A DNA stretch of 64,000 bases, from IMG/VR virus record IMGVR_UViG_3300049460_000121, positions 75,468 through 139,467 of that record, one strand, 5' to 3'. Shown in pieces: positions 16,632 through 21,498 of the stretch; the stretch's first letter is position 1; each line of letters starts with the position of its first letter. Both the position numbers and the translations under genes were made by a program. The DNA comes from a virus (Duplodnaviria; Heunggongvirae; Uroviricota; Caudoviricetes). The notes under the pieces are model-generated. The model worked only from the letters and a program-made list of their open reading frames with translations, searched no databases and was not told the origin of the DNA.

Positions 16632-16672
16632 AAATAAAAAATAGAGCAGGAGGGGTTTCCCCCTCCGCTCCA
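16632..16672 (-). terminator. Intrinsic terminator after chimallin
   Basis: GGAGGGG-TTT-CCCCTCC hairpin with adjacent A-tract. Confidence 0.75.
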
Positions 16673-16696: not shown

Positions 16697-18682
16697 TTAG
16701 TAGTAGTTGCCACCGCTGTACGGACGGCGACGGCGATCAGCGCTGTCGTCGGAACGATTGCGGCGAGTACGACCGATTTCGCTGGTTGCGTACTGGCTGT
16801 AGCCATCGTGACCGATCGAGCGACGAGTCGACAGACCATCGTTGGACGAAACGTGCGGAGACATCTTCGCACCATCCAGCGAGTCTTGCAGAGCGATCAG
16901 GTAGTCCAGGTCGAAGGCCAGTTGCTCGGCAGTGCCGGTAACGTGCAGACCAGGAACCACTTTACGCAGGATCGCGTAACGCTCAGCCAGGTTGAACTCG
17001 ATCGAACGACGGGTGTCTTCGAAAGTAGCCTGGAAGTCCTGTACCAGGTCCAGGTTCTTCTCGCCAACACGAGTCAGCAACGCAGGGACGTTCCATTCAC
17101 GGATGTCACGGCGGTTCTGGTTCTCGTCCAACCAGGTGCCCAGCAGGGTGCGGCTACCGGTAGTGTAGACCGGACGGTAGTCGTTACCCAGGTTACGCTT
17201 GGCCAACGCATCGCTGAAGCGATTGCCGGTCAGAACGTCTGCCGAAGCATGCAGCAGGTCGATCAAGTCGTCCAGCTCGGTGCCAGGCTCTGCGATCGCG
17301 ATGCGCTCGTAGATGCTCAGTACCCAGGACTTCTCGCCCGAGGATGGAACGGTCATGCCGAACGCGACGTCAGGCTTGACGGTCAGGTCGAGGTAATCGG
17401 CCAGATCGTTGTCGCTGATGTTCGGACCGATGTCCTTGGCTACGCAGGCAGCTTCTTCGTCCGGGTTCATCAGGAACAGATGGCCCAGGGAAGTCAGAGG
17501 CTTGAGACCTTCGGCCAGAGTGGCGCGAGGACGCAGCATGGTTGCCCAGCGGTAGTCGTTGGACTGTTGCACTGCCTGAGCGATCAGGAGTTGTGCCAGT
17601 TCCAGCGAGTACGGGAAGTCGCCCGAGCCAACAGAGTTGATGTTCAACACTGCTTGCCAGAACGGGCTCTCGGTATCACGACCACGACGGCGACGGCCGC
17701 CGAAACGACGCTGTTCGCTTTCGCCCTTCTCGTCGTAGGAGACGAACATGTCCAGGCCGCAGCGGATGTCGCCCATTTTGGTACGGGAGAACAGGTTGTC
17801 TTCGCCGTTCGGCTCGGAGTAGTACAGGTTGGTGGTCACGTCGCTACGAACAGGCAGACCCGAAGTGTCGATGATCTGCTTGCCGGTGTAGTCGAACGCG
17901 ATTTCCAGACGGGAGCCTTTACCCATCTTGTCCGGGCTAACGCGGAACTGCGAGGAACGAGTGCCCGACTTGGCGTCGATCATGTTCTCGCGGAAGCCGC
18001 AGATGGCCTCCATCGCGTTATCGTAGATGTGAGCAACGATCTGCTCCATCTCTTTCTCGGTACGGTGGGTGAAGGTGTCAGCCAGGATAACCTGATTGCC
18101 AACCACACGGGCAGTACCGCCAACGGCCGCTTGAGCCTGATCACGCACGATGTTGATGTACGTTTCGGTCAGGTGATCTTCTGGCAGAACCAGAGCGTCG
18201 AAGGTTTCGCCACGCTCAACCAGCGGACGGGTTTGCACGTCGCCGCTTTGCTCGATCAGCAGGATGTAGGTCAGGGCGTAACGCTCGGCACCGATGGTGG
18301 CCGGCAGAACAACCAACAGGCTGGATTGCGAAGAACGCGCCAGCGAGCCATCCATCGGGATGACCTTGAACAGGTTACGCTTGGTTTCAGCAGGAACGCC
18401 AGGCTTGTCGTAAGTCTTGGCGTTCTCGAAGGTATTAACCAGCAGAGACAGAACCGCATCGCTCAGGCCGCCCATGGATGGACGAGCTTGGAGGCGGGAC
18501 ATGTCAGCGAAGGTCACCTGAGTTTCGCGGTTTTCATCGCGACGGCTGCCACGGCTGCCACGGTCGCTGTCGCGGGAATCACGCTCGTCACGGCTACGAT
18601 CTTCACGCAGTTCGGAACGGGTGTCTTCGCGACGCGGCTCTTTAGCATTGTCCGGGGCGTCGGTTACAAAAGTATCGCTCAT
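16697..18682 (-). CDS. chmA: Chimallin, major phage nuclear shell protein (phiKZ gp54-like)
   Basis: 661 aa, very strong codon bias, immediately upstream of beta'-N; DTSGLPVRSD, LTGNRFS, GTW..RDIR motifs; disordered termini. Confidence 0.88.
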   Translation of the reverse strand: MSDTFVTDAPDNAKEPRREDTRSELREDRSRDERDSRDSDRGSRGSRRDENRETQVTFADMSRLQARPSMGGLSDAVLSLLVNTFENAKTYDKPGVPAETKRNLFKVIPMDGSLARSSQSSLLVVLPATIGAERYALTYILLIEQSGDVQTRPLVERGETFDALVLPEDHLTETYINIVRDQAQAAVGGTARVVGNQVILADTFTHRTEKEMEQIVAHIYDNAMEAICGFRENMIDAKSGTRSSQFRVSPDKMGKGSRLEIAFDYTGKQIIDTSGLPVRSDVTTNLYYSEPNGEDNLFSRTKMGDIRCGLDMFVSYDEKGESEQRRFGGRRRRGRDTESPFWQAVLNINSVGSGDFPYSLELAQLLIAQAVQQSNDYRWATMLRPRATLAEGLKPLTSLGHLFLMNPDEEAACVAKDIGPNISDNDLADYLDLTVKPDVAFGMTVPSSGEKSWVLSIYERIAIAEPGTELDDLIDLLHASADVLTGNRFSDALAKRNLGNDYRPVYTTGSRTLLGTWLDENQNRRDIREWNVPALLTRVGEKNLDLVQDFQATFEDTRRSIEFNLAERYAILRKVVPGLHVTGTAEQLAFDLDYLIALQDSLDGAKMSPHVSSNDGLSTRRSIGHDGYSQYATSEIGRTRRNRSDDSADRRRRPYSGGNYY

Positions 18683-18718
18683 GTTGCATCTCCAGATGTG
18701 TATACACGTTTTATTAGC

Positions 18719-18857
18719 GAGTGGGACTATTCCCAGAATTCAGTACGATTCCTTCGTATCGCTATTGAAGGTTCCCAGTGGGATTTCTACCGTCGTAGAC
18801 ACTGGGCCTACTCATCCGTTGTACTAGCGGACTGCGGGTTAACAACAGTTGCGGTCT
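18719..18857 (+). ncRNA. Candidate structured RNA overlapping the chimallin leader (antisense orientation)
   Basis: Nested helices whose G-U pairs form only on the + strand; see findings. Confidence 0.35.
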
Positions 18858-18860
18858 GTG

Positions 18861-18894
18861 TCACTAGAATAATGTAGGTCTGTGAATTTTTACA
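18861..18894 (-). promoter_or_regulatory. Chimallin promoter (early core TACATTA plus TGTGAATTTTTACA element)
   Basis: TCACTAGAATAATGTAGGTCTGTGAATTTTTACA. Confidence 0.75.
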
Positions 18895-19029
18895 ACGAGA
18901 TCCTTCATTCTAGGCAATACCACGATAGACGCAGCATTGGTGCTTGCCCGGTTGTTACACCAGGCTAGTTATTTTACATACTATACACACGAGTATGTAA
19001 ACTTTTACATCATTCAATGGATTACTGAA

Positions 19030-20106
19030 ATGCACACGAGTTTTAACCGCACCAACGGATTCGATGACAGTCCGTTTCAGTACGCCCGAATGACCTATCT
19101 CCAAGGTCGGGTAGCTGAGAACCTCAAGAAGTACACGGATCTCAGGCAGCAGGTATCTGGCCGCTTGAATTCCTCACACCTCCTCATGAAGCTCCTGTCC
19201 ACCCTCACCACTGAATTCCGTGGGGACCTGCTGAGTTACATCGATCGCGTCACGTCTGATTGTGAACGAATCTGCGGGACCCTCGGGATTACTTCTGCTT
19301 ATAGTCGTGGTCGTGTTCACAAGGAAGGGCACTTCTACGACAACTGCCCGGAGATCATTACCTTTGTCCGGTCAGAGAACTGGAACTGGATGGACCTCTG
19401 GCGAGATTGGCGAGCAGTATCAGCCATCGAAGTGTTGGAACACCCGGTGACAGAACTGACCATCTACGAACTGGGCGTCATGAATGAGGCCAGAACTTCG
19501 AAGCGTGGACTTGCGGTGGTAAATATCGACATCCCACTTCTGGCGTGTCAGTGGCGGATGTGGAAAGCCGCTAATCCATTCGACAACAATGAAACCTTCA
19601 TCACCACCGTACTGCTACCAGGGATGATGAAGAGCCACCTCGATCAGGTGATGTTCAACAAGATGCTGGTCAAGTGCGGACTCCGTAAGGAATGCTCCGT
19701 CAAGACCAACCTCCTGTTCACTCAGACCCCTACTGACACCCATGCCGACGAAATCATTGAGGATGCCTACAACAAGACTCTGTCGCGCCGTATGACGGCC
19801 AACCAGATACTTGCCAGCATTCCAACTCTTTATAGTCGGGACGCGTTGGAAGCAGGTGCGTTCCCCAATGTAACGCCTACCCACCAAATCCTCTGGGCTA
19901 TACTGACCCAGAAAGAGTCCCGTGCGGCTTTGGCCATCTATTGGGCAGATAAGGTGGGTGAGGAGAAGATGCTGCCTACGATGATCAAGTTGCGCCGTAC
20001 GGTAATCCGTGCAGAGCAAGACAAGACGTTCAGCGCAGGGCAGACTTCTGACAACGCCGCTTGGTTAGAAGACCGGTTTGTCCGTTACGTCTCTTCGAAG
20101 CTGTAA
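19030..20106 (+). CDS. Conserved probable virion protein divergent from chimallin (phiKZ gp52-like by position)
   Basis: ATG 19030; late-type TATG at 18994; AVVNIDIPLLA..W motif. Confidence 0.65.
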   Translation: MHTSFNRTNGFDDSPFQYARMTYLQGRVAENLKKYTDLRQQVSGRLNSSHLLMKLLSTLTTEFRGDLLSYIDRVTSDCERICGTLGITSAYSRGRVHKEGHFYDNCPEIITFVRSENWNWMDLWRDWRAVSAIEVLEHPVTELTIYELGVMNEARTSKRGLAVVNIDIPLLACQWRMWKAANPFDNNETFITTVLLPGMMKSHLDQVMFNKMLVKCGLRKECSVKTNLLFTQTPTDTHADEIIEDAYNKTLSRRMTANQILASIPTLYSRDALEAGAFPNVTPTHQILWAILTQKESRAALAIYWADKVGEEKMLPTMIKLRRTVIRAEQDKTFSAGQTSDNAAWLEDRFVRYVSSKL

Positions 20107-20711
20107 TAGCCTGGCCAGAGTGTCCCGAACGATTCGCTGTAGTAGCGACCAAAACCGCCAATCTTCTTGGCGGGTTCCAGTAGCCTGGCAGGGACGCCCA
20201 TGGCTTCGATGATGCCGGTACGGAGTTTAGCGTAGAAGTCCAGATCTGGAGCGTACATGGCCTTCAGGTCAGGAAGCACGAACGCGCAAGTACCCAGTGG
20301 GTCAGGATCAGTTGGGTCTAGTTCGAAGGCCGGGGTGTGGATATCTTCCAGTTTCCAGATCTTGCCGCCACAATTGATGGCACAGGACTTAACGCCTGGG
20401 TCAATACCGATGACGATACCCACGTCACCGGAGTCTACAGTACTCTCGGAGATGAAACCCAGTTCGTGTAGGCCGTGCTGGTGACGTACCGGCTTTCGGG
20501 TTGCTTTACGGGATACGGCGATACCAGGCTCCATTACGACGTCCCAACCAGTCTCGCGATTGAAGCGCCTTGACTTATCGAGAGAACTGAACCCCAGGGA
20601 GGTCGGTTTACTTCTGGCGTAACTGACCGCTCTGAGGCCTTCGATCAGCAAGGCCATCATGTCTTTCGACTTCTCCGCCTCATCTTCGTTGTATCGGTAC
20701 ACTTCACTCAT
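20085..20711 (-). CDS. Hypothetical protein (208 aa)
   Basis: ORF coupled to the upstream gene; 3' end overlaps the convergent gene. Confidence 0.6.
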   Translation of the reverse strand: MSEVYRYNEDEAEKSKDMMALLIEGLRAVSYARSKPTSLGFSSLDKSRRFNRETGWDVVMEPGIAVSRKATRKPVRHQHGLHELGFISESTVDSGDVGIVIGIDPGVKSCAINCGGKIWKLEDIHTPAFELDPTDPDPLGTCAFVLPDLKAMYAPDLDFYAKLRTGIIEAMGVPARLLEPAKKIGGFGRYYSESFGTLWPGYYSFEET

Positions 20712-21498
20712 CCGGATTCACCGTGTAGACATGTGTCAAATACGGGGAGGGGAAACTCTCCCCTTTATGCCGCACCTCTTTCATCGCTTCGTCCAGAGAC
20801 TTGGTTACCCCAGTATTGGCGTCGGTGACCGTAGCCCCTACAGACTCCCAATTCACCGGGAGTAACTCCTCGATCGGGATACCGCACTGGTGCTCAGGGA
20901 ATGAAGTCGCTCCCCGTCCACGGTACTGCGCCAATGGCCGATCCTTCATCCGCACCCCATGCTTCGCGATATCCAGGAACGACGGGAATTCAGGTACGGG
21001 ATGGTTGATGCCAAACGACAGCGGGTCCGGATTAGATTCCCAGGTACCAAGGAAATCCTTTACCGGGTTTTCCCTGGCTTCCTCGATCTTCTTTTTGATC
21101 CAATCGTTGTCGTAGAAGTAACAGTAGTATTTGGCGCCGCCGTACTCTCGCACTTCTCGACGGAAGTACTTACGCTGGTCCGGCTGGGGTTCAGACTGCG
21201 GCAACACCACCATTGGGATCCGCTCAGCGGCACTACGCCTGGCAAAGGCACCCGGTGTACACTCGCACGGGATAACCTTCTTACGCAGACCCTCAACGAC
21301 CTTGTAGTCCTTCACGACGCAGAAGGATTCGAGCTCACCCAACTCCCTGAGCTCAGCAGCACCACAACGACACTTGAAGAAATCGGAAGAAATCTTCTGA
21401 TTCAGGCCAACCAGGTAGCGACCCGCTGGGGTCGCCTCCAGTTTGCTCAGTGCCAGCATGTAGTCCGTATAACTCTTATCGTCATCCATTCCACTCAT
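20704..21498 (-). CDS. Hypothetical protein (264 aa), Cys pairs CRC/CEC
   Basis: ATGA overlap with the DNA polymerase stop. Confidence 0.65.
   Translation of the reverse strand: MSGMDDDKSYTDYMLALSKLEATPAGRYLVGLNQKISSDFFKCRCGAAELRELGELESFCVVKDYKVVEGLRKKVIPCECTPGAFARRSAAERIPMVVLPQSEPQPDQRKYFRREVREYGGAKYYCYFYDNDWIKKKIEEARENPVKDFLGTWESNPDPLSFGINHPVPEFPSFLDIAKHGVRMKDRPLAQYRGRGATSFPEHQCGIPIEELLPVNWESVGATVTDANTGVTKSLDEAMKEVRHKGESFPSPYLTHVYTVNPDE

Follow-up and report, generated by a model that had tools for sequence, protein, structure and literature searches.

The messenger RNA of chmA, which encodes the chimallin nuclear shell protein, almost certainly carries in its 5′ leader a conserved RNA structure that is formed on the sense strand and built from the helices P1, P2/P2i and P3, as judged from sequence comparison. 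Two further pairings, PK1 between the P1 loop and the strand after P3, and PK2 between the P3 loop and a strand 14–28 nt before the Shine-Dalgarno (SD) sequence, are supported but weaker, and together they make a predicted double pseudoknot. The leader is apparently an undescribed family of pseudoknotted RNA, confined to a clade of uncultured viruses. The element bears on how nucleus-forming phages dose, export and place the message of the shell protein: it is defined and backed by covariation, and its natural deletion and reduced variants could serve as controls.

The stretch of DNA that was analysed (the window, 64,000 nucleotides) sits within a virus record of 267 kb. The identity of its chmA gene, already named as chimallin in the initial annotation, is borne out by a profile match of the product to PHROG 4795 (E 2.8e-41 across residues 19–638) and by matches to PF25677 and to the PDB entries 7sqt and 8fne. 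The gene is flanked by a divergent virion gene upstream and an nvRNAP (RNA polymerase) subunit gene downstream, the order usual in nucleus-forming phages, and the divergent arrangement is also present in relatives. ChmA is 22–29% identical to that of the closest cultured relatives, and metagenomes contain 32 ChmA relatives with 42–95% identity. We fetched the chmA loci of homologues and compared 26 leaders, whose ChmA proteins are 41–100% identical. The intergenic gap is 337–353 nt in close relatives, the leader is strongly conserved, and a common leader motif can be traced down to 41% ChmA identity. The features of the locus are the following:

16649–16666, minus strand: intrinsic-terminator-like hairpin 3′ of chmA
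16697–18682, minus strand: chmA, 661 aa, chimallin nuclear shell protein
18690–18693, minus strand: SD sequence GGAG of chmA, assigned from sequence and conserved in relatives
18698–18707, strand-neutral: perfect 10-bp loop-less palindrome directly before the SD, variable in sequence among chmA leaders
18717–18831, minus strand: conserved structured leader motif (P1, P2/P2i, P3, optional P4, PK1, PK2), from the 26-sequence alignment (model R1)
18717–18720, minus strand: predicted PK2 3′ strand UCGC, the same in all 26 sequences and able to pair with the P3 loop in each
18722–18735, minus strand: P4, a small hairpin that is optional and varies in sequence, missing from L032, L034 and L038-40
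18743–18746, minus strand: predicted PK1 3′ strand, 4 nt past P3 in 22 of 26 sequences
18751–18771, minus strand: P3 hairpin, 18771-67 with 18755-51, whose loop holds the PK2 5′ strand GCGA (18762-59)
18774–18806, minus strand: P2, 18806-02 with 18778-74, and P2i, 18799-95 with 18790-86, with a GACG loop; absent in the variant L043
18815–18831, minus strand: P1 hairpin, 18831-28 with 18818-15, with the PK1 5′ strand in its loop (18824-21)
18859–18898, minus strand: putative early (virion-RNAP-type) promoter, A-tract 18891-87 and core 18876-69, in a nearly invariant 40-bp block
18946–18997, both strands: back-to-back TATG elements, 18980-77 (minus, towards chmA) and 18994-97 (plus, towards the divergent gene), with a hairpin at 18965-46
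19030–20106, plus strand: divergent gene, 358 aa, PHROG 3938, matching more weakly a family of virion structural proteins

On the mRNA the motif runs in the order P1, P2 with its inner stem and GACG loop, an AA, P3, the PK1 strand, the optional P4 and the PK2 strand; palindrome and SD come next, and then the chmA start codon, 23–40 nt past the end of the fold. Among the unpaired positions, the AA between P2 and P3 and the P3 loop are invariant; together with the fixed 4-nt spacer before PK1 these bases point to tertiary folding or to contact with a ligand. No support was found for GACG as a known special tetraloop. There is no terminator between the fold and the start codon, and homologous leaders share neither a conserved anti-SD nor any conserved pairing with the SD. 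Pairing of the PK2 3′ strand with the Ser-Asp codons after the start was also considered and set aside; it is possible in some members, and in many the codons are missing.

For the covariation analysis, the 26 leaders were aligned with MAFFT on sequence only, the helix registers were set by script, and relatedness was treated by parsimony. In the proposed register 95.8% of cells are paired, against 32–46% in slid registers, and double changes occur at 12 of 25 pairs; none of 500 shuffles, which ignore relatedness, reaches the observed covariation values. By parsimony on the ChmA tree there are 26 minimal Watson-Crick switches; P3, with double changes at all five of its pairs, accounts for 12 and covaries more strongly than any other helix. 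PK1 has one compensatory change (L034) and one wobble (L027/L036), and its strands are replaced by a different complementary pair in L029-33 and L043. PK2 is invariant in all 26 leaders at a variable distance, which fits pairing but gives no covariation, and it is less certain for this reason. An out-of-sample member, L260, which was found after model R1 had been built, scores 104 bits, lies before chmA and keeps all helices, and carries a new G-U pair at a formerly invariant A-U position.

The initial annotation had also seen a structured leader here, and had placed it on the plus strand as a multibranch fold, either an antisense RNA or an extended leader belonging to the divergent gene. All of the pairing strings that it listed are present where it put them and can pair on the plus strand, and the leader sequence of the window, taken alone, does fold better as that strand (single-sequence energy −55.5 vs. 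−47.2 kcal/mol). However, about 6 of the 8 kcal/mol between the strands are due to composition, because shuffled sequences differ likewise (−47.1 kcal/mol for plus vs. −41.3 kcal/mol for the mRNA strand); the folding z-scores are modest (−2.1 and −1.4), and comparative folding favours the mRNA strand, for which the RNAalifold consensus has 13 pairs at −14.3 kcal/mol, as against 7 pairs at −3.65 kcal/mol for the antisense. In the plus-strand ensemble the helix said to close the junction (18719-25 with 18807-13) has pair probabilities of 0.02–0.04 and the arm at 18739-69 of 0.05–0.12, and across the 26 homologues both are broken at many positions; the helix at 18815-31 reaches 0.04–0.07. The sole stable helix of those listed is 18774-806 with its inner helix (0.9–0.99). 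Those parts of the plus-strand fold which survive are the ones that it shares with the mRNA-strand fold, and where it breaks there the mismatches are C-A.

In the homologues, wobbles read G-U on the mRNA in 42 cells against 1–8 A-C. Within the helix cores, the 42 G-U cells on the mRNA correspond to 22 minimal changes, compared with a single A-C cell and one change; a strand-neutral column rule gives 22 vs. 3 changes for the mRNA strand (nominal p 8e-5), and although a few flanking positions prefer the plus-strand wobble, counting all flanks still gives 32 vs. 11 (p 1e-3). The covariation among homologous leaders, proposed originally as a check of the antisense fold, is thus present but supports the mRNA strand. 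Nor does the plus strand offer a promoter motif for such a transcript, since the region 17901-18720 contains neither an early-type motif nor TATG, and the divergent gene, with its own TATG at 18994-97 pointing away from chmA, needs no long leader. The sequencing runs consulted consist of unstranded contigs, which bear on neither strand nor start. With the strand test, the unconserved helices and these promoter data against it, a structured antisense RNA or a long divergent-gene leader on the plus strand is hardly credible. What stands of the earlier proposal is a long, conserved and structured RNA that is possibly regulatory; its strand and much of its fold were wrong. A hairpin holding the SD, which was also part of it, can form in the window but is unconserved among homologues. 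Another window-specific hairpin, with an AGGA loop resembling a CsrA/RsmA site, was rejected, as it clashes with the covarying P3 and is broken in L011, L012, L022 and L023.

It is similarly very hard to credit that the signal comes from DNA, such as a cruciform or a cluster of operators, with no RNA structure. The inverted repeats do adjoin promoters, and the palindrome before the SD may be a DNA operator, as the mismatches in palindrome flanks (3 G-U vs. 8 A-C) show no RNA bias and do not separate an RNA dimer from an operator. On the other hand, one-sided tolerance of G-U and crossed pseudoknot pairings are not expected of double-stranded DNA.

Recognizable transcription signals lie upstream of the sense-strand RNA structure. 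Early promoters of the phiKZ type have an AT-rich core ~10 bp before the start, an upstream A/T tract and a strong strand bias (Refs. PMC11512511, PMC8244752). The same features are seen at the chmA leader, where the core and A-tract lie upstream of the motif, and genome-wide the early-promoter motif occurs 24 times on the minus and three times on the plus strand; the positions within the window are 4549, 9454, 18876, 29972, 49469 and 52644, all on the minus strand. About ten copies are found 37–49 nt before a start codon, and the chmA copy 194 nt before. The chmA transcript would start near 18862 (minus), and the motif at 18876 therefore implies a leader of ~180 nt, in agreement with the ~175 nt proposed at first. 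A few further copies stand 120–940 nt from the next gene, where they could indicate additional long leaders or small RNAs, and tandem motifs ~55–90 nt apart occur before chmA in L027, L028, L032, L034, L038, L046 and L178. Upstream of the early promoter, the two TATG elements, TATG being a start motif of nvRNAP (PMC4666361), are likely bidirectional middle/late promoters. Such a pair fits an additional chmA transcript of greater length, phiKZ chmA likewise having two promoters (PMC8244752), together with a short leader of the divergent gene. The whole element at 18946-18997 is near-symmetric, and its hairpin on the chmA strand is positionally conserved across the clade.

Unlike the structured motif, the palindrome before the SD extends to cultured phages. 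Of 37 Chimalliviridae chmA leaders, which are not all independent, 28 have a palindrome of at least 10 bp (10–22 bp) no more than 55 nt before the start codon, where shuffles predict 1.7; the leaders of phiKZ, Goslar and RAY are among the 28, as are the loci L200, L206, L250-L257, L183-L187, L202, L204 and L205. Within the genome itself, such a palindrome stands before 8 of 164 genes. About ten different central tetramers occur. Folded as hairpins, most of the palindromes are negligible, with energies of 0 to −4 kcal/mol and one at −7.9 kcal/mol, but those of 10 bp or longer are strong as dimers, at −14 to −34 kcal/mol. Self-complementarity that is conserved without conservation of sequence suggests dimerisation of chmA mRNA, and a co-evolving operator is possible as well. 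The palindrome can be mutated in model phages now, phiKZ included.

The motif itself has a narrow distribution. The motif occurs once per genome, with a single match of model R1 in the one analysed here. When 2.9 million viral contigs were scanned with two patterns and the matches checked by model or by context, those confirmed stood only before chmA in the same orientation, always downstream of the early promoter and ahead of the SD. In bacteria, 43 pattern matches were examined and none was confirmed, and blastn of phages and plasmids returned nothing real. Because pattern scans require exact short words, distant variants elsewhere could escape them; a loose scan gave mostly chance matches, L195, L259, L262 and L263 being of this kind. 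All 21 cultured nucleus-forming chimalliviruses tested lack the motif. Within the clade, L024 (73% ChmA identity, nested in the closest clade) has a leader of ~60 nt in which the promoter is kept and both motif and palindrome are gone (L024:161-235, on a single short contig), and L177 is without the motif. L043 retains P1, P3 and the pseudoknot strands without P2, and in L176 and L179 chiefly the GACG-capped stem remains. Together with its absence from the 21 cultured phages, these losses and reductions mean that the motif is not required for shell assembly generally; it looks old in the clade, repeatedly reduced, and accessory.

As to known families, no covariance model of Rfam 15 reaches its gathering threshold, the best E values being 5–9 in four members. 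Likeness to the TPP, SAM, cobalamin, twister and pistol RNAs was considered and has no Rfam support, and identity with the traM/qseM leader family was rejected, as model R1 gives no hit on the traM leader of pTiC58. Our literature search returned no paper that links chimallin to a pseudoknot or a structured leader; the data of one large phage-RNA survey (PMC10690425) may list it.

Our tentative preference, held at somewhat below even confidence, is that the leader fold is a protein-bound element which tunes the synthesis of ChmA. Transcripts from both chmA promoters would carry the fold, which would serve as a platform to which a protein binds. The most plausible candidates are unassembled ChmA and RNA-binding factors of the phage, ChmC for example; bound beside the ribosome loading site, this protein would tune the translation of the heavily expressed shell protein. 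The observations are of the operator type, namely a conserved structured 5′ UTR element of one gene near its ribosome-binding site, and the position of the fold 14–28 nt before the SD, without a terminator or conserved anti-SD, fits such a platform better than it fits a classical riboswitch. In PhiPA3, ChmC attaches to chmA mRNA close to the 5′ end and showed no sequence or motif specificity (PMC11077065), and by analogy we regard this as a pointer to a protein-bound leader.

Several known systems resemble this leader in part. In the T4 gene 32 operator one small pseudoknot precedes an unstructured tract rich in A and U, and this pseudoknot acts in tuning gp32 translation. Here too a phage 5′ leader has a pseudoknot ahead of the ribosome-binding site, and the protein encoded is abundant and assembles with itself (PMC535899, PMC3014915), and gp32 is an autogenous translational repressor (PMC535899). 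The chmA leader differs in having three to four helices and two predicted pseudoknots and in belonging to a different gene, and autoregulation is only proposed for it. The S15 and S4 alpha operon leaders are protein-bound pseudoknots that tune translation and overlap the SD or the start codon. They are comparable in joining a pseudoknotted leader to protein binding, which is proposed for chmA, whereas the chmA fold ends before the SD and, with E values up to 10 allowed, has no Rfam match to such leaders. Riboswitches with pseudoknots, and orphan candidates such as the traM/qseM leader, share the 5′ UTR position, two pseudoknots and invariant junction bases, but no expression platform was found in the chmA leader. 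The phiKZ chmA (PHIKZ054) leader (PMC8244752, PMC10914365) has in common with ours the early and middle promoters and the pre-SD palindrome; the matching early motif there lies only 80 nt before the start, the leader is without the motif, and the premature terminator is absent in the present leader.

Other functions of the sense-strand fold have to be weighed against protein-mediated tuning. A possible, though unlikely, role is that of an mRNA stabiliser or handling signal without feedback, which would shield chmA mRNA from host nucleases or label it so that it leaves the early vesicle or nucleus and is translated close to the shell. The sense strand, the 5′ position, the compact pseudoknotted fold and the lack of SD-switching pairing agree with it, the adjoining palindrome could pair two chmA messages at the dimer energies given above, and mRNA export is an open problem in nucleus-forming phages (PMC13282480); yet an export signal would be expected on many transcripts, and the genome has one copy of the motif and the model phages have none. 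A bolder scenario, which we consider rather unlikely, makes the double-pseudoknot leader a ChmA-bound, shell-sensing switch or nucleation platform, with the family-wide palindromes pairing chmA messages and so clustering shell synthesis where the lattice grows. If it were true, chmA mRNA would hold RNA-level instructions for building the phage nucleus.

An orphan riboswitch, in which a small molecule or ion would bind to the double pseudoknot and so control the translation of chmA in response to the state of the host, is improbable. A conserved fold in the 5′ UTR is what an aptamer would present, and the two predicted pseudoknots, the invariant loop and junction bases and the optional P2 and P4 around a fixed core are in line with it, but there is no Rfam match, neither a terminator nor a conserved SD-sequestering alternative was found as expression platform, the pattern scan did not find the motif in bacterial genomes, and the one gene context gives no hint of a ligand. 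Small ribozymes lie in a similar range of size and double-pseudoknot topology. This, and the many 5′UTR-derived short RNAs of phiKZ (PMC10914365), would speak for the leader as the source of a small RNA made by processing or of a self-cleaving ribozyme. We consider such a product very improbable, as the motif matches no Rfam ribozyme family and no known catalytic core, the leader lacks a terminator, and cleavage there would expose an essential message.

Some further observations concern chmA and its surroundings. The codons TTA, CTA and TCA are almost entirely avoided in all 19 chmA genes checked, an expected sign of very high expression. An open frame of 689 codons runs on the plus strand antisense to chmA (16808-18877); it was rejected as a gene, being a shadow of this codon avoidance with endpoints that differ among relatives. 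The ChmA proteins of the clade have long Arg/Asp-rich terminal tails (18500-18682 and 16697-16780 in the window) and an internal Arg-rich loop, which could bind RNA. The region from the DNA polymerase gene to the divergent gene (20085-21498 in the window) is highly variable in gene length and number among close relatives, with poor read mapping. Downstream of chmA in L177 (4020-5947) and L179 (4031-5944), a shortened RNA polymerase gene is followed by a gene for an HNH/NUMOD1 endonuclease, which suggests an intron as in phiKZ gp55-56.
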